Shown piece after piece: positions 36,775 to 59,446 of a DNA stretch of 64,000 nucleotides (within the stretch, counting starts at the first letter, position 1; every line of letters begins with the position of its first letter). Under the pieces are notes generated by a model, which saw nothing but the letters and a program-made list of their open reading frames with translations, ran no database searches and was not told the DNA's origin. Origin of the DNA: Botryllus schlosseri (Eukaryota); assembly GCA_051294905.1 (NCBI GenBank), contig CM119371.1, forward strand, positions 40,984,001-41,048,000, given 5' to 3'. The position numbers were made by a program, and so were the translations under genes.

Positions 36775-37027
36775 AGTTATCGGACGAAACATGCGATCTT
36801 TTAGTTGGAACTTGGAAAAAAACACCCCCCCCCAATTTTCAAAGGAAAATAAACTTGAAATTTAGCAGTTTTTAGTAATTGTTTGGGTGAGATAAGGCCA
36901 TGAGGTGCGCACCTTATCTCACCCAAACAATTACTAAAAACTCCTAAATTTCAATTTTATTTTCCTTTGAAAATTGGGGGGGGGGTTCAAGTTCCAACTA
37001 AAAGATCGCATGTTTCGTCCGATAACT
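36775..37027. repeat. Near-perfect ~120-bp-arm palindrome
   Basis: AGTTATCGGACGAAACATGCGATCTTTTAGTTGGAACTTG..GGGTGAGATAAGG is mirrored by CCTTATCTCACCC..CAAGTTCCAACTAAAAGATCGCATGTTTCGTCCGATAACT, with a ~14-nt centre. Confidence 0.92.
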
Positions 37028-37338
37028 CATTAAAATATATGGTTTGACCGTTATAAAATACATATATATTATCTCCGGGTACAATTTTGTTAGATTGTTG
37101 TCAGTTGTTATTCCAGCATTCTGGCACTCATTCTTATCATTAGATCGGTAACGCTTGTTCATTGACTTTTTACGGTTCAAATGTTTGATAGTCGTTTTCT
37201 CAATTATAAAATTGTGTTAGATCGCATCACGGTAAACCAAAAATTTGTATGAAATATTTGTCGTAAACGTGTCACTCAAGGTTTTTTGAAAAGCTACAAT
37301 TCAGACCTGTGCTATGCTAAAAGTTCTTAGCCATAGGT

Positions 37339-38845
37339 CAGGGGTTCTCAACCCGCGGCCCGCAGACGATTATTTTGCGGCCCGCGACATCTTTCGTTAT
37401 AAACACAATTATTGCTGACACGGTAGTCTATTGTAGCAAATTAATTTAGATACTTGGCTCCGTCCCTGTTTCGTTTGATTACTAATTTTTGAATGCAGTG
37501 GTTCTCAAACTGGGAGGCGCGTCCCTTAGGAGCGTGAAAGCATCTGAAAGGGGTGCGACGCTGCGGTCAACTGAAAAAAATTTTCGCGCTGCGCGCAATT
37601 TGTCTTCAGTTCATAGTTATTTCTCTGTGTATAGTCCGAATTTCATATTTGAGAATTCTCTCATCAACATCAGTCACAAACCTTCCATGCCATCAAACTA
37701 GCCGTTTGTAGCATTCTGGTTGCATTTTGTAATATGACGATAAGGGGGCACGAAATTATTCTCTTTTAAAAAAGGGGGTGTGTCTGAAAAAGTTTGAGAA
37801 CCACTGCTTTAATGTACTCTCGTTTCTTGATATATGCTCGACTTCAGATTGTTATTGTTTTGAATCGGTATTCTGCTGGACTCTGGTTCAAGGAAATCCC
37901 GCTACGTAGTTGGTCTGCAATTTCAAAGAGTGTTTGACTCACTGCGAACGGTTGTTGAGATTGCCGACGACGTTACAGACGCATCGTTCAAAATTACTTG
38001 GAATATCGCTAAATCCTAGAAATCTGCTACAGAAGGTGCGATTTCAATAAGACCTTAACATACTGTGCGAAAATTTGCTGTTTCAGGAACTTAGCAGCAT
38101 GACAAATTTCGAAGATACAGTCGTCTGATTCAATCGTGTCAAGACGAGTTACGTCAATGTCAGTCGGTCGCATGTTCTGAAACACGTTGCCGCGTATAGC
38201 CTGCTTTAACCCAACCTCGGACAAATCCACCGACATTGCATAACTAATTATCAGAGTGGACAATATGCGGAGGAAATGCTGGCTGGGCAAACGTGGTGAG
38301 GGGACCAGCGAAAAATATCAACTTGACAAAGCTAACTCTGTAACTGTTGATGTAGGGTCCCAGGCATGAAAGGAATGGAGAATGGTTGATTGGTTTGCTC
38401 AAAAATGGTCCCGAACGCCAGAGTTCCTCTCATATCACTCATAGCTCAATGTGATAATGGCCTCTGTAACGCCAAATTTACTGTAATTTTATAATTGCTC
38501 ACTCAAGCATTGAAACAGCGAGTTCGGTTCTCTGGTGGAAGGGTTTTGAGTTGCAGATACCGACTTGGCAATGAATGCAATGCACGCTCCATGAAGGGAT
38601 TTAATTGCGCCGCTAGAAGATACATATTCTTACAATAAGCAGCAGCTGCAAACTTAAGAACGCTGTCCATTGATGCTTTATAATGCATAAAAATGTACTA
38701 AATGCCCGTATACGAGTGGTAAATAGGCTACAGTAGCCTAAATTTAATTGTAGCCCACAAATACACGGTAATATTGTTATGCGGCCCGCAGCGTCTTTTG
38801 CTGTTAAAATGCGGCCCGTTACACAGGAGAAATTGAGAACCCCTG
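37339..38845 (+). mobile_element. Internally deleted Buster/Charlie-type hAT element
   Basis: CAGGGGTTCTCAA..TTGAGAACCCCTG with perfect TSD CCATAGGT (37331-37338 / 38846-38853). Internal remnant at 37954-38162, VTDASFKITWNIAKS*KSATEG..ISKIQSSDSIVSRRVTSMS, resembles Buster/GTF2IRD2-type transposases. Confidence 0.82.
37496..37806. mobile_element. hAT MITE nested in the Buster-type element
   Basis: CAGTGGTTCTCAAACT..AGTTTGAGAACCACTG; imperfect TSD TTTGAATG/CTTTAATG. Confidence 0.8.
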
Positions 38846-40727
38846 CCATAGGTCAACCATGTCAAGAGGTACAGAACGTCACAGTAAACTTACAGCAAAT
38901 GTATGACAAAAATTATGATTTTTTTGAATTTTTGAATTTCGAAATGAAATTTCTCCGAGATGGGTTGTACATAACCCTTGAAATTTTAGCATAGCACAAC
39001 GCTGTCCTAGTACTTCCTAAAGAAGGCGTTAGATCGGAAAAAATGGCTTCACAATATCGAGATTATGCATTCCCCGTGTCGGTGCATTTTCTGTCCTTGA
39101 AATCCAAAAAAATCCACAATCTGCAGGGTCGAACGAAAAATTTTGATTTTTTGTTTATAGCATAGCGACATCTAGCGACTGTGAAAATTTCGTGGTGATG
39201 GGGGTAGCCATCCGAAATTTAGGTTTTTGGGATACTAGTCCCCTTAAAATCAGAGCACATAAAAGCATATTTCACTAATTAAATTCGAAGATGACCGGCA
39301 TTGCGCACTAATTAATCCAAGTCTGTTCGGCACCATCGCAACAATCGTCGAAGCAGATTTCAGCCGACATGTGTTAGTCGTGGTCATTTTCGGCCAAGGC
39401 TTATAGGGTCGAACCGGATTTTGAAAATTGCTAGTTTTAGTTCTAGTTGCGCAGTAAAAAAAATAGGTGACGAACAACCACCTCTAAACTGTGCGCTTGC
39501 ACGGTCGCGCTCTGCTTTTAAAGTCGCCGCGCACGGAAAAACGTGTGCCACGCACAAGAATGCCGAAGTGATGACTTTTTTTTAGTTGTTGCGCTGTTTT
39601 CCAAGGGACGGCGCCGTGAGTTGGTGAGTGCGTACAGACTCGCGAAAAAGTAGAGGGAACATTGCTGACAACTAGAAAACACGTGTCGTCGTTTGGTCAT
39701 CCTCAGTCAAGTTCAAGTTCAAGTTTATTCATACAATTTCATGAACTTCAAGGTCACCTGACCATGATTTGACCGACCACACCTATCAACAAATGCCTCA
39801 TTTATTTTCATCGCTAGTCATTTAATGTTATCCTTTATTTCTTGCCGGATTTCAATACTGCTCCAAGTCGTATCGGAACCCTCTTATCTTTTCGATATAT
39901 CGCAATCTTATGGTGCTTTGATCTGATGCAAATTTCAATAAAAAGATTGATTGATTAGCGCGAATCGTGATGCCGGTGTTCTGTTGTGTGATGTTCTTGC
40001 AGAAGTGAGTTTTCTGGGTCAAAACCCCTGCCATTACATGTTCGTTCATGTTCAGTTCATGTGAAAAGCCGATCCGATAAGTGGGTTGCGACTTGCGATT
40101 GCAAATATATAAAGGTTTGACAGACAGACAGATTCTTTATTATTTTATGCAATGCGAGTTGACACAAAGACGACTCCAAGTCGTTTCGACACCTTGCTAT
40201 CTTTTCATTGTATCGCAGTCTTGTGGTGTTTTGAAATGATGAAATGAAATTATTAATCTAAGAAAGAACTGAACAAATATTTAAAAAAGATACGACCACA
40301 ATGTGGTCTTCGAGCCAGCTGTAGTCATGGATGAATGATGGACCATCAATAATATCATATTACTGTCAGTAGTCGCGAGCTGTTCTAATTCTGAGCATTT
40401 TGGAAACCAAGTAGTTGCACAGCACAGGTATGAGCTAAGTTTTACAAGACGTGCTTTCGTAGTAGTACCAAAATTCTGTAGCGACACGCGCCAGCGATCA
40501 TCAACAGTGCAACCTTGATGCAGGTATTTTCACTTTCACACAAACGCAATGTGAGATCTTCGAAGAATTCAGCAAATCTTTTATCGTGGTTCATATTTGT
40601 ACCACGAGAAACAGCAGAACCCTGCTTATGTTGGCAATGGTGAGTGATTGTTGTTGAGTGCGGATGAATACATTGCTAGTCACGAGTTCAGAGTTCTCTC
40701 TACGTCTAGCTAGCAAACAACAAACTC

Positions 40728-40737
40728 ATGACGTCAT
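40728..40737. promoter_or_regulatory. Palindromic CRE/ATF site in the probable Rab5 promoter region
   Basis: ATGACGTCAT at the start of the long repeat-poor stretch preceding the Rab5 coding exons. No transcript evidence. Confidence 0.3.
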
Positions 40738-43700
40738 CGACTAGGAGGTGATCAGCTGAAGTCGATAAAGTATTTGGTGGCGTGATGCGAGTCGTAGAAT
40801 GGGTGATAGGAATGTTATTTTTTGTCGCGTATCCACCAAGTTGAAACGTTGCCTTTGTTCACTCCGCTGTAATTTTAGCCCAGCATCTCAGCTCCGATTG
40901 ATTCTCGTTTATTTCGTACTCAGCAGTTGTTCGTAACGGGAATGCACGATTGAAATTGGATATCAAGTTCGAGATGATATTCGCTTTTGCACTGGCTACA
41001 AGCATATTGCGACGGAGATCTTGTCATTATATTTTGTTTTACAAGCTGCTAGATCAAGATTGATGATTCATGAGTCTTGTTGAAGCTTTGACTCTTTGTT
41101 ATGTAACTTCGAGTTTCGATTGTGAATGGTTAATACAAAGTACCGTATCTTCGAATTTAAAATATGGATCAATGATGTAGTTTGGATAGAGTAGGATCGG
41201 GGTCTAATCATAATATCAAGACTCTACTAATCTACTGTAACTTCCAGTTTTATCTACTCATGAATAGGATTCATGTTATCATATGTCATACCTTGTATAT
41301 AGATGTTCCTGCTTAGTTAATGCCAAGCTGTTGTCTTTCGTACAATGATCAGAGCTTGAACATATCACCTTGTGAGAAAGAATTGCTGCAATCTACTGCT
41401 TGAGACCATTTGACTCAGCCTAGCCAGACAGGAGATGATTAGTTAATTTGACATTCTTCAAATTCGATTGAATAATATAGTGTGAAGAAACCCAAATATT
41501 TTTGTGAAGGGTAGTCGTCAGAAACTAGTTTAGAATTGGAAAGAACATTGTATATCAGCAATTGCATCAACCAATATAATAGGCTTACTGGCATGAAATT
41601 TCGAATAATCATGGCAGTCAGATACACAGTGATAGATATACGGTACAATGGTTTTTCTTTCTATTCACTACTATATATACTTGCTGAAGGTTGTCAACCA
41701 AAATATTCCTTGTGGTTTATTTCAATATCAATATATATTATTCAACTGTATATTGAATTTCTGTACATAGGCTACAAGGCTGACTAGATGATTGAAAAAA
41801 GTTGTCGGGGCTTGTTCGCTCTGTTACTATGAGTCATACTTCTGTCCAATGTGTTGATTTTTACTGTCAATTGCGCTGTGGTAGAGCTGGAATGGCTTGA
41901 TTTTGCGATATACCGGCCTCACTGGTACCATTTCAGTGGAAAATTGAATGATGTTTGCATATTAAAATAGCCCATATTTTTGGACTACACTCAAACTCAT
42001 TTCAATATGAATATACTATTCAATTGTATATTGAAGTTCTGTACCTCCAAGAAACTCTTCTTATATAGGCCTAATATTCAATTGTCTGGAAGTCGTCTTT
42101 CTCGCCAAGATATATGAGCAGTCTCAGGGTTAGATATTTCATCTCACTGCCAAGTTTGCTCTGAGCCATAGGGATTCTTAACATGAAGCTCAATATTTGT
42201 GGAAAAGATACCAAATTCCAACCTGGTACTGCATGCTTACCTGTGACCACAAATTATCCAGAATTCCTCGATTGCCATTTGTAGCAATAAGTTGTCATGC
42301 AGGGTGTTTTCAGTAACTAACACTCATGGATGCTGGCCAGTCTTTTTGCGAATACCTGGACCTTTTTTTTGTAACTGCTGAACGTATCTGTTATTCGGGA
42401 CATTGTTTCATTATGGTACCTGTAAATTGTCAGTGACTTATCGTTATTTAAATAGAGCTGACTTTACTTGTGTGAATATGATATGTTGGATATTATACCA
42501 GACAATTGGAGAGTTGGTTGTTATTTTGGTAGTTCCACCAAGCTGCACAATTGCGAGCCTTGTCTTCTAATGTAATTGTGCCACTTCGAAGCAGTTCATA
42601 GACCAAAATATACTGTTTTTAAGGATGAGTTCCAAGTCTTTGTGTAAATCTGTAGTCTTTGTTCAAATGTTAACATCGTAACTAAGTCTTGACCCAATCT
42701 AAGTTTTGGACTGACAAATAAGCGTTAGCTGCTGATCAAACAATAAATTTCTCTTTGAAAAAATGATGAAAACTGCTCGGACATAGATATCGTCTGTATA
42801 ATGAGCATTGTAAATATTGATGTGTTTTGAATTCTATTTTTGAAGCCAGAATTAAAATTTCTGTGTAGCGCTCATCGCTACTGATGTAGTTTGAAATGTG
42901 GTTTGATTGATCAATGTAATTAAAAGTTCTTTTTCATTCACAAAATTGTTGTGTGACTCTGGCTAGCTTCGGGTTTTAATATATATATTTACGTAATGAA
43001 TATATTGTATATTTAGGTCTCCTCTGCTATAAGGCATTGCCTCTTGTATTGCCGAAATATTGAGCATTGTTTCACAGAACTGAAAGTGTACCAGCATCGA
43101 TCACGGTAGTGTGGAGTAGTGTATTTTTAGTTGCTGGTAATCGAGGATGTACCATTTCACATACATGTTTAATAACACTCCTATTCCTTTGCTTTCAAGC
43201 CTTTACAACTTCCTGCCGTGTAGATTCCAGAATGATATCATAAATTCCAACGTAACACTTCGAGTTTGCCGTAGATTTCATTATTTGACTCTTCGTTTGT
43301 GTTTGTTTCCTGGTACCTTGTATATTATAGATAACCGTATCAATCAGGTTGACGTCAGACTGTCGTCAGTGTTCATTAGGTCAGTTCAGTGTCTGCGTGC
43401 ACTTACTAGCTATGTGTGAGACTGTGTTTATTCAGGCAGCAATAATTGTTCTAAAAGTTTATCTCATCAATAGTGACTTGCTTGATTTTAAAGATGACTT
43501 ATGCACAAAATGTAATCTTCTGTGCTACCAGAGTATAGATGTGATTCAGTTGATTGCATAATGTGTCTCCTGGTGTAATAGTCATAGATATAGGTGACTT
43601 GATCATGATATAATGTTATATGTTTCATTAAATGGTTTAGAAACCTTTCTGAGTCATTGCTAAGTTCTTTCATTGACCAATTTTGGTGATTCCTGGCGTT

Positions 43701-44394
43701 TTTATTGTGATGTTTTAGTACTGGACTCTTTGTTAGTAGTCCCTATGTAGAAGTTTTTATCGATTTAACAGGTAGTGCTGTTTAAAAATGGAGAATTTTC
43801 GTCGATCAGTAGTTGAGAAAGTGTGTCAGTTGTTAGTGACAGAATTTGAATGGTCGGTTGGTGTCGTATTTTGCAAAACACTGTCAGTGACCTTTATTAG
43901 AGTATGCTTTCGATTAGTGATAGGGTAGTTGTAGGAATTAAGTGTATTTGAAGGGTAGATCTAATTCGAGCCTTGACCATCGTAGCATCGGACACATTTA
44001 CTATATATACTCCAGGTAATAGCATCTTAATGTATATTTTGGCATGTAATACATATACTGTTCCAGTTGATTAGCTGCCACTCCATGCATTGCATAGTGC
44101 TTTATGCAAACACCGTGGCTTTGATGCAGTCATTAAATATGCAGTGTGAATCCATCTTTCTGGCATGAACTAGCATTAAATCCTAATGTCACACGACTAT
44201 TTTTGGAGTGTACTACTGTAGATATATTGTGTGAATACTGCAAGTGTTTAGAACACTATTTTTAGGTGTTGAAAATTCAATTTTTAAGTATCAATTTTTA
44301 TCATTGCTCCTTCAAATTGATTATTGCTACTGTGCGGCAGAGCGAGCCCGCTCTAAAACAGTTCGTTCTTTTCAGAATATACATTTTTGTAGGT

Positions 44395-44536
44395 ATGTTA
44401 ACTAGACGCACACCACAGGGACAGCTTTCTCGATGTAAATTAGTGACACTGGGGGAATCGGCAGTTGGAAAAAGTAGTTTGATAGTAAGATTTGTGCAAG
44501 GACAATTCAATGATTATTTAGCACCGACCATAGGAG
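44395..44536 (+). CDS. RAB5: Duplicated alternative first coding exon of Rab5 (exon 1a)
   Basis: ATG 44395, [47 protein letters not shown]+G, donor GTGGGA at the same phase-1 position as the canonical exon. Acceptor TTTTCAG|AATAT (exon from 44376) parallels TTTCTAG|AATAT (46173). Confidence 0.75.
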
Positions 44537-44827
44537 GTGGGATGTTTTCAATTTATATACTTTCTTGATAATATCATTTCAATAGTAATGCATGTTCAAT
44601 TGTTCATAAGAGTTGTAGCCAGACTTCACTTGGTCAGTAGTAACGAATGGCACAGCCGCTTTATGGCACACTTGATTGTGTATTAGACTGTGATTTGCTT
44701 TAATGGACTATAGTATGCCAGCTGTGTAGATTTATATATTTGAAGATGCTCGCAGCACGAGCAGTGTGGCAAAAAAGTATTTTTCTATACTGCAACTAGA
44801 ATCCCATATGACTCTTTTCTGCTTTAA

Positions 44828-44927
44828 AGGGGCACTGCACTCTGAAGAAAACGGCTGCGGCCAAATTTTTTTTCTTCGTTTTTCCCTTCAATTTGAGACC
44901 ACATCATTTTTGGAGTACAGTGCCCCT
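44828..44927. mobile_element. 100-bp Kolobok-like MITE
   Basis: TTAA-AGGGGCACTGCACTC..GAGTACAGTGCCCCT-TTAA. Confidence 0.75.
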
Positions 44928-46219
44928 TTAACTCAATATTTCATTAATGATGGAGAAAGGCTTATATGTCAGCTCAGTTTAGTTTATCTTATTAAGAATT
45001 TCATCAGTTCAAAACAAGTTTGTGATGAAATGAAGAGGTAGGAAGGGGTCATGTGAGTGACTTGGAATAGTGATTCAGTCAAACTCTCGCCTTTGCTTAC
45101 AGATAATAAGAAAGAAGACTATTGAAGGATGAGACTTTCACAGTGAATGAAAAGAGCCAGAATATGCCATGATATGTACTTGCAATAAAAATGAAGGGGC
45201 CTCTCTCAATAGGCGTGTATACTGTCAAGTAATAATCAAGCGCAGGCTAGTATGTGGCAGTGGCATCCATTCTTTTTGCACATGGTCGCTTTTTATCAAT
45301 CAAGATAAATTAGACTGGTGATATGATGAGCGGACATCATACATCATTATACCAAAGACCATTTCGGTCTGTCTTTAACGATATTCATTTGTTGAAAGTC
45401 CCTCATGCAGGAAAGGAAAGGACGTAGTATATTTTTGTCCTTGATGCAACTGAGTGTAAATAACAGCTTTACAGTCATGAAATTTATTGAAGTTTTTGAA
45501 TAATACAAATTGTTGAGTGCTCCAAACAATGACTCTATATTTTCTAAAGAACTGTTTGTGTGGCATGTGAGGGCAGCGAATATAAATTGGGTCTGCATTC
45601 AGTATTCATGCACAATTGGGATGATTCCCTTTGTCTTATATTGTTGAGAAGTATTCATGTAACATACAATTTGCTACTATGGTTAGGAGAGGTTATCGTA
45701 ACTTGCTGCATGGTATGGGTAATGTGTTGCTGTAAGTTGTGGCAGATAGCCGGTGTAGTACTTCAATGTTCAGTTCAATGATATGTTCATATTGAAATAA
45801 ATCCCTAATATTTTTGGCTGACACCCCGTCACCTGAAATTTTTCGAAATATATTTTATTGTAGCCTACATAAATTTGGAAATAATCTGAGATGGTGTGGA
45901 GACGGATTGAAAAGTTCTTTGCATGTTGACGTGGAATTACCCCTGGGTCTGGTGTAGATAGCTGGGTACAATGTTCTTACTAGTGCTACTAGTTGATGGC
46001 AAATGCCCATGTATTCAGCCGAAAATTTTTGGGTTTAGTTCAATAGGAATATAATATTCTATTGCAGTCTATTTAAATGGCTTGAACACTATTGCTAATG
46101 TGATTCAGCTGCAGCAGTATACTAGGCCTATATATTTTTCGACTTCCGTGACATTATATTTGTCCTTTCTAGAATATTTATCATTATTATAATTGAACAG
46201 TTGGCTCCGTTTTATAAGA

Positions 46220-49200
46220 ATGTCTACCAGAAACACACCGCAGCGACCAAACGGCCCGGGCGCGCCAGGGAAGATCTGTCAATTTAAATTAGTATTACTC
46301 GGAGAATCGGCGGTGGGGAAAAGTAGTTTGGTATTGAGATTTGTTAAAGGACAGTTTCACGAGTATCAAGAATCAACTATAGGAGGTGAGAGAATTTTTT
46401 TATTTATATGTACGATTTGTGTCATTATTATCATACCACTATAATACCTATATCATTCCAATGGGTGTTCATGAAGTATTTTGATTACTTGCACGTAACA
46501 CGCATTTTTGTTATGTCAACTTCATCGTAAACAAGTGCATCTTGTATGTTGGAGCAGTAGTATGTGGTATATCCCAATTTTAGAATTTTTGCTCGCTCAA
46601 TCGTGAATACCAAACTGTCGTTCCGCAAATGGAGTTTTCAGCCAAGTTTAGCTCTGCCTATAACCATGATTTGTTTCTGGAAGAGTAGCAACACCAAATT
46701 CTGTCTTTTATGCCCAGTTCGTGTCACAGATACATGATTAATGACATAATACTATCCTCGCACCCTATGTCTGTTTATATATTCATGTTTTCCATCTAAA
46801 TATTGTAATTTAAAAATGATTTCGGTTTTGAGTGTTTCTGTCCTAGCCAGAAAAGTGAAAGCCCTATGTGCAATTGATAATTCATGACTATCAAGTGCGC
46901 CTGCTACCAATCTGTGTTTCACATCTGATCCACAGTTGCTGCATAAAGTCTGTCAGCCTGGTGATTCATTTAAAGTACCGGTACCTGGAACTCAGGAGCT
47001 ATATACATTGATTCATTTTGATAAGCATGCCTGCCTCCGTCATTTCGACACTGATCTCACACTCATGATTTGGTATATTTTTACATTATAGTTAGCTAGC
47101 TAGTAGCTACTTATAGGTTATGTCACAATCATTGTAACCTCTTGTGACAGAGTGTCACAATAATGAATGTTGTAAGCTTGTATTCTACAGCTTGAAGCAT
47201 GAATTTGAGTTTATTAGATATAGCTGATAAGTCTAGCAAAAATGACTATCATAGGGCCCGCCTGAAGACCTCTTGTGGAAAATTTGCTATTTAGTTCTGA
47301 TACACCATCTAATATGACCATTGATCATGAACAAAATACATGTTTAAAACTAGCGTGTCCAAAATGCGATGTATTCCAAAGGCTGTTATGTTCATAATTT
47401 TGTAGCTGTGATATACAATCGTCGCATGTAATATCATGACTGTCCTTGGAATTTGGCTGGCTAGTCAAACTTATCACATCCCAAAGTCGCTGATGCTAGC
47501 AATTTTCCACTGTTTACTTGCTAGGAAACCAGCCAGTGATGCCATTCTTTGCATAGCTCCTGTGTCATAAATCCATGTTTGACTGTTTCATTGTGCTGCT
47601 AAAGATATTCCCTTCAATAGAAGCAGCTAGGCCTTATTACTGAAGTCAGTTTAATTATAGTGCAATGGCTCTCCACGTATTTACTTCTGCAATGTATTGA
47701 TCCTGCCTGATTGCAGTATGAAGATTCTTGATTGATGTAATATTCATCATCGTGTGTCCCTATGTCAATTAATTCTCATGGGTACAATTTTATGAAATTG
47801 TTGGTTTTGACAAGAACTTTAGGTACCGCAGTATTGCAGAACATCATTTTAATTTGAATATTTAGTTTGAAGCTATAACTTTTGGTTTTTGTCACTTCCC
47901 ACAAAATCCTTGTTTGTCCTATTTGTAAGATAGTCTTTATAGTGGTAAGCCGACGGCTAGGGCTCTTCAAAAGTAACTTTTTCTGTCAAATTTCACTGGC
48001 TGACTTGACGATTGTCAGGGTGCCTAAAAAACGGCGCACAACAATCTTCGCTCAATTCCAACCTATAGAAGCATTGCTATATAAGGAACAAGTTATAGAT
48101 ATATTTAATAGAAATACCTAAAAATATTTTCGGATTTCACTGGCTACACTATGAAATTGTTAGGTTGTCTGAAAAAATGATGCTCAACAAATTTGGCTCG
48201 ATTCCAACCAGTAGACGTGAAGTTATTGAGGTACAGGATTTTTGGTTTGAAAAAAAAACAGTATTTACGGTGGCAAACTCTTCATCATTTATTATGAATT
48301 TACCCACCTTAAATACTATGATTTAAAATCCTAAGTTTCTGGCATTTGACAATATTGTTGATATTGACAATGTTTGGTTTGGCTTATCAGCAGATCAGGG
48401 CTGTGCGTTTAATATGTATTTTGTAGTTTCATCAGCCAACTTGGATCGTGCTGATTGATTTTTATTACCCGTATGGGCCATATGTTTTGTTGATGTCTGT
48501 GCTCGAAGGAATGAATGTTAACAATATCAAAACTCCATAATCCATTTGCTTATTATGCGCTGATACTGTTCCAGCATAAGATTATATGTTTCACTCAAAA
48601 AATTCCTGCTCCTGATAAAGGTAGCTTGTCAAAATCGACCTGTGCTTTTTAGAGTTTTGAGAACATTTTATAAGCCAAGTTCTATACTAGTGCTACTAAA
48701 CGAGAGAGGTATTCGTAGAGTGCATAATGTAGAACTCTCACACAAAGAAATCCCCCATAATATGACTCCGTTCACACTTCCTTAAACACTCATTATATTG
48801 GATAAGAGATGATTGTATGGATATGAAGAGGCTAAGCAATATGAGGCAATCCCTAATGCTATTGACTGTCCCTTCATAATGTCGATTGCCCGACAGATTT
48901 GTACAGTAGCCTGTCTAATAGGCCTGTAGCTTAAATCATGGACTGGTTCATCCATACATCCTGTCTAGTATCGTATGTAGAAAACAAAATTACAGTCACC
49001 AGGCTACTCATCTATTTTTAATCAGCCCATCTTTTAATCAATTGTAGATGCCAAGTTTCTTCGATTACAGACTGTGTGTTTATGGTGAAACGCTGCCACT
49101 GCCATGTTTTGATAGTGTCATCGAAATTGTTGAGAAAAAGCGGTCACTCGTGGCTTGTTTGAAAGCAGACATCTCTGTCGCCGTGAATAGCGCATACTTA

Positions 49201-52200
49201 TTCACACTAGGTATACGTTGTGGACTCTATAAGCAAGTAACCAAAACTTGGTCCATTCTTACACAAGGTTACCTCGTCATCTTGATAATATACACTCTTG
49301 CTTACCCTGCTCTCATCTTGCTTCGTGGCATAGTTGGTTAGGTGTTAAAATTCTGAATCCAACGCTATATTACTTGTTGGTTTCGCATCCCGATAAGGTC
49401 GTGTTTTAGAGTTTTGAAAAGTGAAGCAGAATTTTCGGAAAAACCTGCAGGTGCCAGCCGGCTCTTCGAAAATAATAATGGCTTAATCTTAATGGCAATT
49501 AATTCAGTGCTTGAAAAATCATCCAGACTCGAATCATTGAGCCTAACACTAACTGTTTATGTGAATGATATGATAATGATATAATAATTTATTGAGCACA
49601 GAATATAGCAATATGTCATCTCTACACTAGGGCCCTGGCCCGTACACAAGGGTCGCATTAAAACACAAGTATAATGATATATGGTTTGTTTTTCAGCTGC
49701 GTTTTTGACGCAAACCGTTTGCCTACAAGACACCACCGTAAAATTTGAGATCTGGGACACGGCGGGCCAGGAGCGGTACCACAGTCTGGCGCCGATGTAC
49801 TACCGAGGAGCACAAGCCGCCATAGTCGTATATGACATCACAAATCCGGTAATATTTTCGAATTCGTATTACTTTCGTCTCTGTGATGGAGTCGTACAAC
49901 TGGAAAATCTTCAGCTGCTCCAAATTAGATTACAATTACGATTACCTAACTCACAAATACTTGAAAATTGAATTCAATTTCGAACTGAAAAGAAAGTTCA
50001 GTAAGTATCAAATCAGAGAAAAGGTCTGTACATTTGGTTTGGTTTGCAATATACTACAGTCATCCAGTAGCATTTTCGATGGCTAGAGGTAATGCGCGAT
50101 TGGGAACAAACATGAAGAAAGGTTTATTTAAAGTTTTTGGTCGAGGGAGATTTTTTTCAAGGCTTGCTGTACCCATGTATAATACGCACCCCCTATTTTA
50201 GGGCAAAAAATCGGTAAATTTTGCGCATTATACATGGAAAATTACTGTAATCTAATTAGGAAAATTAGGTTATTTACAAGAAAATCAAAATCGACCCAGA
50301 ATGCCATTTTTGGCAACAGTATTAGTATGCACTACGCATCTTCGAACTGAGAATTGACACCTCAATTTGATGATAGGTTTGATGCTGTATATGTGTAATG
50401 CCTGATTTTACGGTTATATCGATGTTTGTGCATGAGAAAAACCTGTTAAAAAACACACTCGAATTTGACTGTTGCATTTGTATTGTAAGAAATGCCATCT
50501 TGCTCTCTGCTAAGATTCTAGTATGGTGTGAAATGTCGCTAAATTGCAATGCTGTAGTCCTCTTATCATTCACATATTACCAGTTTCGAAGAAGGTGTAT
50601 TGTAGGCTACTTTATTACAGTAAAGCACTTGCGGCATATCAAAAAGTAGAACATGAACAGTATTGCATCAGAAACTGTCCTAAATTGCGATCTAAACTTA
50701 TACCGTAAATCAGTTGAAATTAGGCGTTTAATTTCTCTTATTAATGAATAAATTTTGTAGAACCATTGCAGAATCACTTTGAATGGGTTGTTGACATGAA
50801 CCGTTTCGCACTTCAATATAATCAATATCACAGTATGACTTTGTGGCATGTGCTGCACTCAACTACAGGCCTACACAACACACAGGGGCTATAGCTTTGA
50901 AAATATAGTTGAATAGGAGTTGTATTCCCAGGCCTGCTTCATAAATAGCCCGGAAGTTTCAGTACAGTAGCAAATTAGAAGGTATATATTGCAACGGAGA
51001 CGGAGACGTGTAATTCCGAAATTATTTCCACACTCAATCAATATATGGATTTATTAGGCACTGGGGCTTCTTACACTGCATGGATCTGGCAAATACTGGA
51101 CAGAAATAGATTGAAAGCCTTTTTAGGCTATATTATTTATAAACGATCCAAGTTGTTGAATGAATACCTAATATAAATGGATTAAAGGCCCTGTGCTCAA
51201 CCGACACATAATATGACAACTTTGCAGTATCATGGTGTGAATGCCACACAGTAAAGTATCTGTTCGGTCATAATAATGTTCGCTATTCCGATGTAGTCAT
51301 CCGTGAAGAATATATATTGCCCACAGGAGTATGGTACAGGTTAATCATTACTGGCGAGTATTACATCATCGGTCATAATGCTTCTGTGCGTTGTGGCTCA
51401 ACTGTGTGGCTTATAACTGTGATAAGCATCTTGATGATTGAAGTATATTCAAGTAACCATTCTGTGGTAGTATCTAACTAGATGCTCATTCATTAATTTC
51501 TATACATTATCAGGAAGTTTTATTGTGCTGACATGGTAAATCTGGATTGTATGCTAGTCCAAGTTTCGGTTATGGTTTCTTCTGCACATCCTGATTATCT
51601 GTACATGAATATTATAACAGCTTCTCGGATGTACAGAACTTCAATACCGTACCGTATATAATTTAGTAGTACTTTCATATTGAAATATGCCTGGATATTT
51701 TTGGGTGATGTCGTATTTGGCGATACGATTGTTGATATACAATGTTCTTTCCAATTCTCTGCTAGTTGCTGACGATTACCCCTGACGAGTGAGGGCCGCT
51801 CAAAAGCACTTCGCGGGCCGTATGTTGCCCGTCCCTGGACTAGAGCATAACTCTATCACATTTTTTAATTAAAATAGAGCACGTTTTGTATTATCATATT
51901 ATTGAAAATTATGGATCAAATTCTGCCATCGGCTATCTATATTCTTAACTCCCTACCTTTAATTTCGATATGATTACCTTTTATGCGACCACAAAGAATA
52001 GCCTATAATGGCACTTCTACATCATATTAAAGATGATTTTGTGTTTATTCGACTATACCAATTTCATTGCACTTCATAGCAACTAACGCTTTGCTTCATT
52101 TTTCCTATGCTGTGATACGACTTATTTAAGTTTAGAGCTTTCTACAGTAATATAAATTGACTCTTAGTTGGCAAGAAGCGTATCATTTTGGTGCACATTA

Positions 52201-55200
52201 GTCCTAGCTCTCACGTCGGACACTTTTATGTTATTTGAAAATGCCGCAATCTTGTGTTGTTGTGAATTAGAAAGATATTTCAACTACTATGTTACATATA
52301 AATATATACAGAGAAGAGAGAACCAATCTTTGCATTATTCTGACCAATACGATTGCAATGGAGTCTAAGTATTGATACAAAGATCATGATGGTGCCGATT
52401 TTGTGAATTATAAGCTCCAAACTACTGTAGGTAGCATAGCAGTATGATAGCAAGTAGAACTTGGTTCCATTTCAATAATGCCTCTGGGCGCAATTTTTTA
52501 AGGATGAAATCATTGGAATGCCTGGGAGACACAAGTTTTCCGAGCAGAATTGTTGGTCAAGAAACTTGTTAACTTGAGGTCATTTTGCTGTATCATGATA
52601 TGATCGTCATGATGATGACTCATGATTACTGTAACTTTAGAGTTACCTCTCAGCAACTAGGTTGTATAATAATGGCTTGCCACTAATCATGATTCAGAAA
52701 TGTGCCGACGTTAATTGATCTACAAAATATTTTGACATGTCCAAAGTCTAACTAGCAACCTTTCAGAAGTTTTCTGGCTGGTGTACATAACTTGTTGAAA
52801 AGCTTGATCTGACTTGAAATTTGTGATGTTTTTAATGTATCCCCTTGTCTATTTTATTGACTCAGTACAGCTGATTGTGACTGGAGTATTGAAGTAGTGT
52901 CAGAGATTGGAATTAGAAATAGAACTACATGGTAGAGTATAATTATAATTATAGCTACACCATGATTTTCAAATTAGATTCGAATTAGAATTAAAGCTAT
53001 ACCATGATTTCCAAATTAATTAGGATTAGAATTATAACTACCGTATGCAGTTTTTCAGATTAGATTTGCATTACAATTACTGAATTTGCAAATTCAATCG
53101 AGTTAAGTACATATCAAATAACAGCTCATTCACATAAGCATGAATATTTCAAATGTCTGTACATCGCTCTTCTGTAGCAATGCGGCTACTGGTTGGAATT
53201 GAACCAAATTTTGTGTGTAGGCTTTTTTTAGCAAGTAGCGTGTACGATTTGAGAAAAAAAGTCATTTTTGAAGACCCCTAATGAGCACCCGTCAGACAAG
53301 GACGTATCTTGAATTCTGCTGGTTATATACTCCTATATATCGTCTCTGTGAAGAGTAAATCTCGACACAATTTTACTAACATCAAAATAACGGCTTATAG
53401 TTAAGTACAAATTGCCATAATTCCAATACTACTCGACGTATAATCCCAGCAAACTTGTTCATTAAGTGCTGGGATGTATGGAGAGCTATCACATAACGAC
53501 ATATTAGTATGTTGTAGTCATGATTTGCATTTTCAGTTTATTTCAATTGATAGAACTTGCCAATCTGCGTCTATCAATGCTAAAACCACCGATAGAGAAT
53601 CCATAGAAGTCTGCGTGCATGCTTTTGAAATATCTGGATGGTGATGTCCAGAGGTATAGGCTGGCTACTTTGACATTTTCATTATAAGTAGCCTGCCCGA
53701 GTGTTTTAATGCGACCCCGTTCATACTCAACAACTGTCCTAAACTGCCGTCTTGCCTTGCAGGAAACGTTCACGAGGGCCAAAACGTGGGTGAAAGAACT
53801 GCAACGACAGGCCAGCCCCAACATCGTCATAGCTCTGGCCGGGAACAAGGCTGATCTTTCAAATAAAAGGATGGTTGAATTGGAGGTTGGTGGGCCTTGG
53901 TCAAGCGTACACCGCAATCTAGTATCTAAAATGATAGCCTGTGCCCAGAGTTGGAAGCGGGAAAATTTTCGGCTGATCCAAATTAGATTAGAATTAGAAT
54001 TATGGCTGAGTTGTTTTTTTCTTCAAACTAAATTGGAATCAGAATGGTAGCTACACAATTTTTTCCAAATTATATTAGAGCTAGAATTAGAATTATGGCC
54101 ACAGTTTTTTCCAAATTGAATTAGAATTATAGCTACACTATAATTTCACAAATGAAATCAGAATTAGAATATAGCTGCACAGTTTTGTCCAAATTTGATA
54201 AGGATTAGAATTGTTAGAACTATAATATAGCTAAACAGTTTTGTCCAAATTAGATTAGAATTAGAATTGTGGCTAAATTTTTTTTTCCAAATTCGATTAG
54301 AATTGAAATTATCGATGGCTACACAGTTTTTCCTATCAAATTAGAGTATAACTAGAGTTGTGGTTACATGGTTTTGTCCAAATTAGATTAGAATTACAAT
54401 TATAGCTACGCCTAATTTCCAAATTAGACTAAAACTACAATTATGGCTACACAGTTTTTTCCAAATTCGATTAAATTCAGTTTTGTCCAAATTAGATTAG
54501 AATTAGAATTGTGGCTAAATTTTTTTTCCAAATTCGATTAGAATTAAAATTATCGATGGCTACACAGTTTTTCCTATCAAATTAGAGTAGAACTAGAGTT
54601 GTGGCTACATAGTTTTGTCCAAATTAGATTAGAATTACAATTATAGCTACACCTATTTTCCGAAATAGACTAGAACTATAATTATGGCTACACAGTTTCC
54701 CAAATTCGATTATATTCAGTTTTGTCCAAATTAGTTTAGAATTAGAATTAGAGCTACTCATTTTTCTCCAAATTATACAAGAATTGGAATTTTGACTCGG
54801 GTCATTTTATGTATCGACTCGAGACTATGACGGCCAAGACTGACATTTCATTGTAAGAGATAGTATAGTTACCACATTATTTCGTCTATCAGTCCGGAAT
54901 GAACTGAAAACTGAACAGTTAACATAAAATTTGGACTAGAACTCGAGTCAAAACACTATGACTCGGACTCAACCAGGGTTGTAACCAAGTCACAAAGCTC
55001 CGAGTCACAAGTCATTCACACTTTTATGATTTTGACTTGAGTCAAGTCGAGTCATTTTCAATTCACCACCGAGTCAAGTCCGAGTCCGAGTCATGGTATT
55101 ATGACACGAGTCCGAGTCCAAGTCATTATGTTGACCGTTCGGTTTCCAGTTAGAGTCTTGTTAAACCCACTTTTTATCACTCTGTTTGGTGATATCGAAT

Positions 55201-58200
55201 GGTTCGCATTTATAATATACTAATTTTCCTCACTTTTAGCAGTTTCTGGTCGCATTTTCAAGTACCAGTACCAATAGACGTAATTCCAATAGGGTGGTTA
55301 CTTTACTATTCTTCAAAATTACAATGAAATGTCGGTCTTCGCCGGCTGAGTCTCGAGTCCAAGTCGAGTCAATACACAGATCGACTCAAGTCGAGTCGAG
55401 TCATTTCCGTATTTTGAGAAGTTGACTCGAGTTAATTCGAGTCATCAAAAATTGTGACTCGAGTCATTACAACCCTGGACTCAACCCTCTATTCACTTAC
55501 TTTAAACTAGACTTGACTCGGTGGTGAAGTGAGAGTGACTTGTTACTCGGAACCTTGACGAACAGACTAGGACTTTCTCACATTTTGTATTTTCGAGTCA
55601 TTTGTCCCGAAACTTATAATACTGTGTGTATTTGGGGCTGCTCCCAAGCACTGCTGCATTATGCCTTGTAAAAGATCACATAGCTATATGCGAATGTACA
55701 AATTGCCGTATGCATGACTGATTGTCATGTTACTAACCGGCACAGGATTTTGCTGATGCCGTTTGCATGTGATATTAGGATAAATTATGCTTCTGTATTC
55801 AAAACTGAAAATCCAGCGTCGCCACTTTCGGCAAACGCTCTATTATTGTGACGTGACAGTTAGTCACCGAAGAGGTATGAAAGCTGCGATGACTATCGAA
55901 CGTAGATCTACCATATGCGGACATGCATTTGATTTCCTGTGGAACAAATGATAAAGCAATGCGCATTGCCGGTTTTTACTGTGATTCTGAAATCTACCTG
56001 AAGGTTGTACGCCTGCCTGATGCAGTCTTTGGCAACCAGACAATTCTAATTGCATGATTAGAGCGAAAAAAGTCGTGAAACTATGTGAAACTATTCTCAT
56101 ATACGGTAATTTAGAAAAAACTGAAGCTATCATTCTAATCTAATTTAGAAATCATGGAGTAGCTATAATTCAAATTCTAGTCTAGAAAAAAACTGAATGT
56201 GCGATGCTATGAAAATGCTATTTATTGTAATTCTTGCCTAATTTAGAAATCATGATGTAGTTGCAAAAGATATACCGTAATTCTAATTCTATTCTAAGTT
56301 AGAAATCTCAATGTAGGTATTGAAGCTATAATTCTAATATAATTTAGAAATCGTGGTGTAGCTATAACTATAATTATATTTCTAATCTAATTTAGAAATC
56401 ACGGTGTAGCTATTTAAGTCAATTCTAATCTAATTTGGAAGTCATGGTGTAGCTATAACTATAATTATAGTTATAATTTAATTTGGAAAAAAACAAAAGC
56501 TACCGGTATAATTCTAATTTTAGTCTAATTTGGAAAAAAGTGTGTAGCTATAATTTTAATTTTAATCTAATTTGGAAAAAACTGTCTCGTTATAATTCCA
56601 ATTGTAGTCTAATTTGGCAAAACGTGTGTAACTATAATTCAGATTTTTATCTATTTTGGTAAAAAGTGTGTAGCTATAATTCTAATTTTAATCTGATTTG
56701 GAAAAAAAACTGTGTTGTTATAATTCCAATTCTAGTCTAATTTGGAAAAAAATGTGTTGTTATAATTCTAATTCTAGTCTAATTTGGCAAAAAGTGTGTA
56801 CCGGTACCGGTAACTATAATTCAAATTTTATTCTAATTTGCAAATAATGATTAGCTGTAATTCAAATCTAACTTGGAAAAATCTGTGTATCTATAATTCT
56901 AATTCTAAACCAATTTGAAAAAAAAACTGTGTAGCTATAATTCAAATTCTAATCTAATTTGAAAGAGAAAACTGTGTGCTATTATTCTAACTCTAGGCTA
57001 GTCTAATTTAAAAAAAAAAGTTGCTAACCACCCATTATGCAAGCCGTGTTTATGGTGTGTGAAGCACGATCATCACCGCGCATTGTCAGGCCTCGCCATA
57101 ATTTGTAAACATGGTTTTGCCACAGAATTATTGTGTTCCAAATAATTTTTTTAGTATGCCATGCGTAAAGGATAAAAGTTTGTGACCTTATCAAATGTCA
57201 GATTCGAAACGTTCTTCAATAGTGTACATGTGGTAGTGCAAGTTCTGACAAGTCGTAACCTCATGGCATATCGTGACTATGTGCCGCATTATGTAATGTA
57301 GTTTGAATCTGTTATGTAACTTGATATTTACAGCTGACACATTAGCCAAATTGGTCTGTAATCGTGCCAATATTTACAGCTTGTTTGCGATAATAATTTC
57401 AATTTCGGAATGGTTTTGTGAATCGTAGCCTAGGTGGTTGAGAATTGGTTGATTGTGTAGTCTCCATACTCTTCCTATGTAGCAAATTTCCTTTAAAATA
57501 TCTTTTTACGCTGTTAGGCTTCGATAATCTCATTTATTCAAAATCAATTTAGGATCTGTTATTTTGATGCTATTTTTAGAATGTTTTCTTTGCCTTGAGA
57601 ATTCTGTATGTCATTTCTCTGTGAGATGCCCTGAATTTAATTGGATCATCCCGCCCAATATCTAATGCTAATCTTGTTTGAAGTAGAGAGTTTTATACAA
57701 GAGGCGAATCGCCACCTGTCTGAACTTAGACAACAATATCTGGCGGTGATATCTTCTACTGCAGTAGGCCTACAGACTTGGACAGTTAGATAATTTTAGT
57801 TGTGTAATTATGAATGTTATCCAGTGTAGTGGTAATCGCGATAATAGGGCACATCTATCATGTGTTATGTTCCGATAAATCTCTTCATTGCTCGTATTTT
57901 GTCGCAGGAAGCACAGGCGTACGCTGAAGAGAATAGCCTGCTTTTCATGGAGACGTCAGCAAAGACAGCAATGAACGTTAACGATATATTCCTTGCCATA
58001 GGTAAGCTGCTACGGTGTGCCGGTTGGTATGCCCAGTGTGTGTCTAATCGTAATCTAACTCGACATAACTGTGTTTCTGCTAATCTCCAACCGATATGAG
58101 GTTGGTAATTCTTGATTGTGGCCGCTGGTAGAGTACTGAAACAGAGTCTCATAATCACCCATGTGCGAACTACTGGATTAATTTTGTGACTACCTAACTA

Positions 58201-59446
58201 AAACACAGCTAACTGATAGCTGGTGAAATTCCGCAACTAGAACTAGAACTATGGTACTTGAAGAACAATAATCTGTCACCGCCAGACTAGGAATATTGAT
58301 CTACATTATCCGAATGCATCCAGATGCAGAGGTATATTTCATGTCCGGGCATAACGATGGCTGTGAAGCTGTTTCACAAATATGCCTTAAACTAGATGCC
58401 GTATTTCTTTTTTATATTGACCGAATATAATATTGCTACAGTGGGCAGATCTCAAGGTTGTAACCAAGTCACAAGTCAATCTCACTTTTATAGTTTTGAC
58501 TCAAGTCAATTCGAGTCATTTTCAGTTCCCGTCAAGTCCAAGTCACAGTGTTTTGACTCGAGTCCGAGTCTAAGTCATTGTGTTCACCGTTCAGTTTTGA
58601 GTTCAATCCTGTTCAATCCACTTTTTTAACTCTTCACGAGTGATATAGAATGGCTCGCATTCATGATATCGTAATTTTCCTCAGTTTTAACAGTTTCTGG
58701 CTCCATTTTCCAAGTATCGGGACTGATGCACAGAATGCCAATAATGTGGCGACTTTACTATAGCTCAAAGTTACAATGAAATGTCGGTCTTGGCCGGTCC
58801 TAGTCTTGAGTCGTATGACTTGGTTCGAGTCATGCACAAAGTCTGTAGTACAAGTCGAGTCACCGAAAAATCGTTACTCAAGTCATGTCAACCCTGGTAG
58901 ATCTATAAAAAATAATTGAGAATTTGCCACCGTAAATACTATCTTTTCAAGTCCAAGATTTTGTACCCCACTAACGTGGAAACTTGGTTGGAATTGACCG
59001 GAATTGTGCATCGTTTTTTCAAACAACCCAACAATTTCATGGGGTAGCCAGTAAATTTGAAACAATTTCATATTCATTTTTATTAAATAAATCCAAATCT
59101 TTTTTCTTTTATAGCAATGTTTATATAGGTTGTAATTGAGCCAAAATCGGGTGCTGCGTTTTTTTTCAGGCTACCCAACCATTTTATCAAATAGCCAATA
59201 ATTGAAAAATAGTTTATTTTGATCAGGTTATCGATATTGGTTCAAAAATCCGATATTGGCCAGGCTCTAGTTGTGATAAATGTTTTTGTAACGACTTTTC
59301 ATGACGAAAGTCCTAAATCTTTGCGTTTTCCAGCCATGAAACTCCCGAAAAACGAGCAGGGCCCGAACGCCAACCGCCAACGTACCGTAGACCTCAACGA
59401 GAGAGAGCAGCGAAGCGAATCCAAGGGCTGCTGCGGAAGCAACTGA
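46220..59446 (+). CDS. RAB5: Rab5 small GTPase (215 aa)
   Basis: Exons 46220-46385, 49697-49848, 53763-53885, 57908-58001, 59334-59446 (648 nt). [67 protein letters not shown]. Confidence 0.98.
53970..54790 (+). repeat. ~40-bp minisatellite array with a ~240-bp higher-order repeat
   Basis: Monomer approximately TTCCAAATTAGATTAGAATTAGAATTATAGCTACACAGTTTT; 54236-54477 is repeated at 54478-54716. Smaller clusters at about 4440-4530, 24830-25230, 36390-36530 and 52900-53100. Confidence 0.9.
54974..55477. mobile_element. hAT MITE family A nested inside an older, oppositely oriented family A copy (about 54793-55560)
   Basis: TIRs with TSD GACTCAAC (54966-54973 / 55478-55485); both flanks are family A sequence. 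Confidence 0.88.
56100..57020 (-). repeat. Inverted array of the same ~40-bp minisatellite
   Basis: Repeats of TGTGTAGCTATAATTCTAATTCTAATCTAATTTGGAAAAAA, the reverse complement of the 53970-54790 monomer. Confidence 0.9.
58453..58896. mobile_element. hAT MITE family A
   Basis: CAAGGTTGTAACC..TCAACCCTG; TSD GCAGATCT/GTAGATCT (1 mismatch). Confidence 0.85.

Follow-up and report, generated by a model that had tools for sequence, protein, structure and literature searches.

Can a single Rab5 gene give rise to two Rab5 proteins by choosing between two copies of its first coding exon? The question is raised by a 64,000-nucleotide (nt) stretch of the Botryllus schlosseri genome (contig CM119371.1 of assembly GCA_051294905.1, G000:C1:40984001-41048000; hereafter the window, with positions counted from its first letter), in which a Rab5 gene of six exons lies on the + strand. 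Upstream of the canonical first coding exon, here called exon 1b, lies a homologous exon, 1a, which an earlier reading made from the letters alone (the sequence-only reading) had taken to encode a second isoform with a different N-terminus and switch I. Exon 1a keeps an open frame, intact splice signals and a substitution pattern that departs from neutrality, and the available RNA has exon 1b in use; the reading that we tentatively favor, at somewhat under even confidence, is that 1a is an alternative first coding exon maintained by selection, one that is seldom used or confined to particular cell types or stages.

Few Rabs are as conserved as Rab5, the master switch of early endosomes. If 1a is used, nature has supplied a form of Rab5 altered in the stretch that leads into switch I—a ready-made specificity experiment from which one could learn what regulators and effectors recognize that surface, and by what means endosomal identity is diversified in an animal whose genome has one Rab5 gene. 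It would also be a splicing-based counterpart of the vertebrate split into Rab5A, Rab5B and Rab5C genes. If 1a is silent, it illustrates clearly how an alternative exon looks soon after it has been lost.

Two homologous first coding exons

Exon 1b spans 46173..46385 (+ strand), with its ATG at 46220 and 55 codons plus one base; positions 46220-46384 translate into the 55 residues of a canonical Rab5 N-terminus. Exon 1a (44376..44536, + strand) lies 1.85 kb upstream, with an acceptor AG at 44374-44375, an ATG at 44395, 47 codons plus one base, and a donor GT at 44537-44538. The description of 1a as an open, spliceable paralog of 1b stands on every point: positions 44395-44535 give 47 residues without a stop (MLTRR...GESAVGKSS...APTIG), the P-loop GESAVGKSS and the switch I threonine are kept in translation, the acceptors are homologous (...tcttttcag/AATAT in 1a and ...cctttctag/AATAT in 1b, with the slash marking the exon boundary), and both donors are in phase 1 (GAG/gtggga in 1a, GAG/gtgaga in 1b). 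These are adjacent homologous exons of the same phase, with open frames, intact splice signals, and coding lengths that differ by 24 nt, in frame. The sequence-only reading had worried that the 1a donor, GTGGGA, is weak; this concern is lessened because the constitutive exon 3 of the same gene uses an unusual-looking donor, GAG/gttggt, indicating that weak-looking donors are tolerated here. The donor of 1a appears no weaker than that of exon 3.

The counts first reported for the aligned core (KLV..TIG, 33 codons) were reproduced: 24 of the 33 residues are identical, 10 of these 24 carry a synonymous change, and five of the nine replacements lie in HEYQES>NDYLAP. Nucleotide differences in the core are distributed 7/3/14 over the three codon positions, and overall 17 of 47 residues differ between 1a and 1b. 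The N-terminal tails align as well (MLTRRTPQ.. and MSTRNTPQ..), with a single in-frame gap of 8 codons. Chance similarity is ruled out by the nucleotide comparison (blastn, 132/182 identities, E 1e-24), by the translated comparison (tblastn, E 8e-15), and by a 137-nt ungapped repeat of 72% identity found in a repeat search of the window. A second remnant upstream (44242..44260, + strand), which pairs with 46075-46093 at 79% identity and a spacing of 1833, shows that the duplication reached past the exon, and the 300-nt flanks retain faint similarity (z 3.3, reached by 5/500 shuffles, and z 2.4, reached by 13/500, the latter in the upstream flank). The exon is 72-73% identical with one in-frame indel, while flanking intron homology is faint. 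The pair is an old tandem segmental duplication that took in the exon and its flanks, the flanks having since been nearly randomized.

A second full gene copy is ruled out as the source of 1a: in the window only exon 1 has a second copy, and exons 2-5 have none. Across the 495-Mb genome, the nearest relative of 1a is 1b, at 63%, with other Rab loci at 50% or less among 30 matches. Exon 2 finds one locus at 100% identity and the next of its 18 matches does not exceed 67%; therefore, there is one Rab5 gene and no retrocopy. Further Rab-like loci (C12:15215457, C12:14661622, C8:12478172 and others) lie in open frames of 243-278 amino acids (aa), which suggests intronless Rab genes or retrogenes elsewhere in the genome.

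When 1a is read into the 1b acceptor, the sequence G/AA TAT TTA TCA TTA TTA TAA closes the frame at 46190-46192, as had been claimed; this TAA falls six codons further on, in the 5' untranslated part of exon 1b and 27 nt ahead of the 1b ATG. A productive mRNA would therefore carry one exon or the other, with a coding sequence of 215 aa through 1b or 207 aa through 1a, the lengths originally given. Nothing in the sequence sterically enforces this choice, since the intron between 1a and 1b is 1636 nt long and neither donor resembles the U12-type motif. Among the inverted repeats flanking 1b there is no convincing case of selector or docking RNA pairing; two pairs (45255-45272/49087-49104 and 45338-45352/49669-49683) were rejected as selectors, being short, AT-rich, and present in about the number expected by chance on a rough estimate. 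Rfam gave no match over 37000-60000.

Selection on exon 1a and its predicted peptide

Between the two exons, synonymous sites are saturated and replacements few. Nei-Gojobori estimates over all 47 codons give a synonymous divergence (dS) of 0.97 and a nonsynonymous divergence (dN) of 0.205 (dN/dS 0.21); over the 33-codon core they give a dS of 1.33 and a dN of 0.144 (dN/dS 0.11). Third-position GC content of the core does not set the exons apart (0.27 in 1a, 0.30 in 1b). Over all 33 residues the 1b core matches human Rab5C exactly; the nine core replacements must therefore have arisen on the 1a lineage, and the pairwise ratio is too favorable to 1a.

We simulated a neutral 1a alongside a 1b that accepts synonymous changes only, using local intron base frequencies, a kappa of 2, and a grid of nine divergence values (t) with 20,000 runs each. 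We scored how often a neutral 1a kept its frame open, shared 30 or more of its 47 residues with 1b, and had synonymous changes at 12 or more of the shared residues. The joint probability peaks at 0.0106 (t = 0.2) and is at most 0.002 at t of 0.35 and above; when the ATG and the four AG/GT bases must survive as well, the maximum is 0.0026. The observed pattern is matched in the simulation when the 1a lineage has an omega (dN/dS) of ~0.45 and t is 0.4-0.5. Without constraint, frame, ATG and AG/GT bases all survive with a probability of 0.20 at t = 0.1, falling to 0.05 at t = 0.2; a neutral phase in the history of 1a, if there was one, must therefore have been short. The substitutions indicate purifying selection on both exons, relaxed in 1a at omega ~0.45, and in our reading a relaxed constraint on coding has acted on 1a for most of the time since it arose; the saturated dS, the 47 codons available, and the approximation of the ancestor by 1b set the limits of this test.

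The 1a peptide scores 36 bits against the Pfam Ras family PF00071 (cutoff 21.6), with 1b at 39.1 bits. Its best solved relatives are Rab5C, Rab5B and Rab5A (E ~1e-9), followed by Ypt51 (4.5e-6) and Rab31 (9.5e-6). The P-loop GESAVGKS fits GxxxxGK[ST], and the threonine of 1a aligns with the T of STIG in Rab5A/B/C; the peptide departs from the canonical alpha1/switch I residues of Rab5 (...[FY]QES). In human Rab5A numbering, assigned by alignment, the replacements are L25T, V37I, L38V, K42Q, H46N, E47D, Q49L, E50A and S51P. They fall in strand beta1, at the end of helix alpha1, and in the run into the magnesium-binding Thr52—of the six residues that precede this threonine, five are changed—and the altered region corresponds to the segment called SF2 by Pereira-Leal and Seabra, which is specific to Rab subfamilies. 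In Ras, Rap and Rheb the switch I threonine normally follows directly on a proline, and a Ras-like metagenome locus reading YPTIE is in line with this. Since proline is normal at this place, the predicted 1a variant is expected to fold and to bind nucleotide, presenting a different surface beside switch I.

The remainder of either protein comes from shared exons, which carry the IGAAF motif, switch II and the tail. Exons 2-5 supply DTAGQE, GNKADL, ETSAK and CCGSN, to the 1a form only if 1a joins exon 2. Exon 2 (49697..49848, + strand; AAFLTQ...DTAGQE...YDITNP) is common to both forms and holds the acceptor that 1a would need; its end has been corrected to 49848, and the junction of 1b with exon 2 is borne out by reads. 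Exon 3 (53763..53885, + strand; ETFTRAK...GNKADL...VELE) has the GAG/gttggt donor mentioned above. Exon 4 (57908..58001, + strand) and the last coding exon (59334..59446, + strand; ..MKLPKNE...KGCCGSN, stop at 59444-59446) are placed from the sequence only.

Protein databases were searched with both exons. A phmmer search of 1a against 1.84 billion representatives gave 609 matches. Among 26 fetched from the best 150, neither L-A-P before the threonine nor the T of KLVTLG was found; all 26 are canonical Rab5 first exons at 60-71% identity, a few sharing a single N or D, and the representatives are clustered at 50%, where a 1a-type copy could be hidden. Of the proteins fetched, the closest that is both full-length and named is Rab-5B of a sea anemone, with 180/213 residues identical. 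A word-based protein search returned six candidates for 1a, none of them scored, and no candidate for the 57-aa read-through open reading frame. For 1b the same search gave 4282 matches, with 89% as the highest identity and no match at 100%; the proteome of this species therefore apparently lies outside the collection, and a missing 1a isoform means little. A metagenome scan with 1a found two loci only, both of other small GTPases.

Transcripts and competing explanations

RNA was placed on positions 37001-57000 from two raw runs (X12 and X16) and two contig runs (X4 and X6), and statements about joints below refer to the 15 listed out of 435, joints with 4-5 reads among them. X12, a bulk sample of which ~6% was read, is the one raw RNA run with coverage of the gene; in X16 the gene is barely covered, and there are no reads from 1b to exon 2. 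Exon 1b is the working first coding exon. Its junction with exon 2 (46385 to 49697) is crossed by 21 reads in X12 and by spliced contigs in X4 and X6, and that of exon 2 with exon 3 (49848 to 53763) by five reads in X12 and an X4 contig; the read joints are recorded as 46383 to 49695 (cut +2) and 49847 to 53762 (cut +1). A 1519-nt X6 contig opens with 20 unplaced letters before 46171, so the 1b acceptor is used, fed by an unseen upstream exon or leader.

Two features of the introns affect how coverage is read. The X6 contig that joins 1b to exon 2 continues into intron 2 (pieces 49695-50076 and 50252-51027; intron positions 49849-51027). Either the intron is retained or pre-mRNA is abundant in this run, which explains why intronic sequence, 1a among it, is assembled there. 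In the intron between 1a and 1b, a palindromic element (44824-44931) with 19-nt arms, 95% complementary and 70 nt apart, dominates the depth of the bin that holds 1a. It is a dispersed repeat resembling a miniature inverted-repeat transposable element (MITE), because its coverage is deep in each of the four runs and comes from many contigs.

A word search with 44376-44536 listed no run recorded as RNA. The share of 15 sampled 1a words was 0.73 in X4, X5 and X6, 0.53 in X7, and 0.40 in X8 (kind of run unrecorded), and no piece holding 1a was among the 16 X4/X6 pieces listed (15,792 further pieces). The 1a words in X4 and X6 were discarded as evidence of splicing, as both runs assemble intron sequence at low depth.

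In the reading that we favor, the donor at 44536 would join exon 2 at 49697 and exon 1b would be skipped. The product would be a 207-aa Rab5 with unchanged switch II, G3-G5 motifs and prenylation tail, differing in its N-terminal peptide, in residues of beta1 and alpha1, and in the segment before the switch I threonine. The choice could fall at the two homologous AG/AATAT acceptors, made from an upstream non-coding exon or a spliced leader. It is plausible that one locus encodes two Rab5 isoforms in this way. The fuller proposal—that a lone Rab5 gene yields two Rab5 proteins of the early endosome through a choice between its duplicated first coding exons—we consider possible but on the doubtful side. 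Under it, exon choice would exchange the N-terminal peptide together with the end of helix alpha1 and the first half of switch I, leave switch II, the interswitch and the membrane anchor as they are, and provide a minor 1a form, limited to particular cell types or stages, with different guanine nucleotide exchange factors (GEFs), GTPase-activating proteins (GAPs) or effectors. The homology, the intact signals, the non-neutral substitutions and the use of 1b are established; splicing of 1a, its joining to exon 2, and an altered choice of GEF, GAP or effector are inferred.

Several observations weigh against these proposals. The sequence-only reading, sound in its anatomy, spliceability and frame logic, had predicted reads from 44536 to 49697; none is among the joints listed for X12, X16, X4 and X6, where the only joint seen into exon 2 is that from 1b. 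Nor do the listed joints include one from 44536 to 46173, or any other that leaves 44536 or enters 44376. A 472-nt X4 contig (depth 143) runs through 1b, 2 and 3, and the X6 contig of 1519 nt (depth 47) joins 46171-46383 to 49695 onward, that is, 1b to 2. The X12 bin with 1a has a mean depth of 1.33+1.99, all of which the inverted-repeat element can explain: 25-31 reads lie at 44883 and 44917 within the element, and 14-22 at positions in 1b. From these depths 1a would amount to at most a few percent of 1b in X12. No protein database search returned a 1a-type exon, although these are weak negatives. On the side of selection, 1a was singled out for looking intact, and by this ascertainment the simulation probabilities overstate the case; an omega of ~0.45 is relaxed, and also fits constraint followed by recent death. 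The RNA weighs against 1a as a major isoform; a rare or restricted 1a is still compatible with one informative bulk run. On the choice between a second isoform and a decaying pseudoexon, the substitution pattern favors the isoform over a long-dead pseudoexon, and the splicing itself is not borne out in the RNA examined.

The main competitor to a maintained alternative exon is a recently silenced relic: 1a was long coding, is now unspliced, and has only begun to decay. This is a serious possibility, though one that we would not back on balance. In its favor are the absence of a 1a junction from the joints listed and the X12 coverage of 1a near zero against 21 reads from 1b to exon 2, as well as the use of 1b in the X4 and X6 contigs and the lack of a 1a-type isoform in database searches. 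Constrained and neutral phases mixed are expected to yield an omega of ~0.45, and nine of 33 core residues have changed in 1a against a partner exon identical to human Rab5C. The difficulty is one of timing. Divergence since the duplication is at least ~0.4-0.5 per lineage, so a dead exon would look intact only briefly: with the frame, ATG and AG/GT bases all surviving at a probability of 0.20 by a neutral divergence of 0.1 and 0.05 by 0.2, silencing would have to be recent. The sole indel is in frame, and the RNA sampling, with one informative bulk run, is thin.

An alternative that we consider quite unlikely is that 1a serves as a poison exon or upstream open reading frame, included ahead of 1b in some transcripts so that the stop at 46190-46192 lowers Rab5 output, with a functionless peptide; the route, quite unlikely in the same measure, would be transcript decay or blocked translation. 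The geometry suits it, with the join of 1a to 1b stopping six codons on and 27 nt before the 1b ATG, and the 1b acceptor works, as the X6 contig with its 20 unplaced letters indicates. However, such a role predicts no constraint on residues, yet no more than 0.26-1.1% of simulations reproduced the data under neutrality, the P-loop residues are all conserved despite synonymous changes, and no joint from 44536 to 46173 is listed. Least probable of all, and very unlikely in our view, is a never-functional by-product that drifted neutrally and stayed intact by chance, or was kept similar by gene conversion from 1b: 1a was indeed picked out for being intact, and copies just 1.85 kb apart could convert, but the joint probability reaches at most 0.0106 (0.0026 with signals), and conversion, rejected as the source of the similarity, would erase synonymous differences where dS is saturated (0.97-1.33, against a dN of 0.14-0.21). 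A small share of probability, slight but above that of either of these last two, is left for readings not listed here.

Known exon swaps and the surroundings of the locus

Swapping of tandem duplicated exons is already established in small GTPases, in RAB6A, RAB37, KRAS and CDC42. If real, the 1a/1b pair joins a known type of event, and it holds moderate interest because Rab5 is otherwise so invariant. The mammalian proteins RAB6A and RAB6A' differ by three residues. Like 1a/1b, they arise from a Rab gene in which a tandem duplicated coding exon changes residues of the G domain; however, the RAB6A exon is internal, both isoforms are expressed, and the event is conserved across vertebrates, whereas here only 1b is seen in RNA. 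Unlike the RAB6A exon, exon 1a of Rab5 contains the start codon together with the P-loop and the first half of switch I, and it differs from 1b at 17 of 47 residues. One preprint lists RAB6A among tandem duplicated exon events, and names KRAS and CDC42 as conserved duplicated-exon events (10.1101/2023.04.29.538821).

KRAS4A/4B and CDC42 are small GTPases diversified by swapping homologous exons, as is proposed for 1a/1b. Their swaps affect the C-terminal membrane-targeting region, unlike the proposed 1a/1b swap, which would affect the N-terminal nucleotide-binding and switch I segment. The evolution of RAS membrane targeting is the subject of PMC9882654. For the homologous exon pair of human RAB37, passages of PMC8373072 describe identical residues that are mostly interior and differing residues that form a surface patch, read by the authors as allowing different partners. 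A similar logic is seen in 1a, in which the P-loop and core are kept and the changes lie on the alpha1/switch I surface. The same passages present the RAB37 event as ancient, common to vertebrates and invertebrates, and annotated (PMC8373072); in contrast, the Rab5 pair is known here from the sequence of one genome, with RNA for 1b alone.

A different comparison is with gene duplication. Vertebrate Rab5A, Rab5B and Rab5C have a near-identical G domain and divergent N-termini, and are thought to divide endosomal tasks among them. They are separate genes that keep HE[FY]QES before the switch I threonine; exon 1a, unlike them, alters exactly this segment, inside a single gene. We found no report of a duplicated or mutually exclusive exon in Rab5 in open-access full text, a search that left the supplementary event tables of PMC8373072 and PMC9741552 outside its reach.

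Several other features near the gene were observed in passing. Within the intron between 1a and 1b, a 34-nt segment (45413-45446) is covered by several hundred reads that run into unrelated sequence on one side and poly-T on the other; this is probably a piece of sequence that looks like the 3' end of some abundant transcript or retroposon, polyadenylated and minus-sense. Positions 41997-42060 and 51722-51791 are dispersed repeat copies with backward joints (51791 to 41997, 100 reads in X12) and many loose ends, which looks like an abundant repeat transcribed elsewhere and not a rearrangement here. Further upstream, a CpG-rich segment (39480-39630; observed/expected CpG 1.0-1.4 over 39001-41000) ends in GTGAGT donors at 39616 and 39624, and is a candidate promoter and non-coding exon 0 of Rab5. 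Finally, two X6 contigs contain a GT..AG joint within 37331-38847 that skips 1515 nt; this points to a spliced + strand transcript upstream of Rab5, which could come from a neighboring gene or represent 5' exons.

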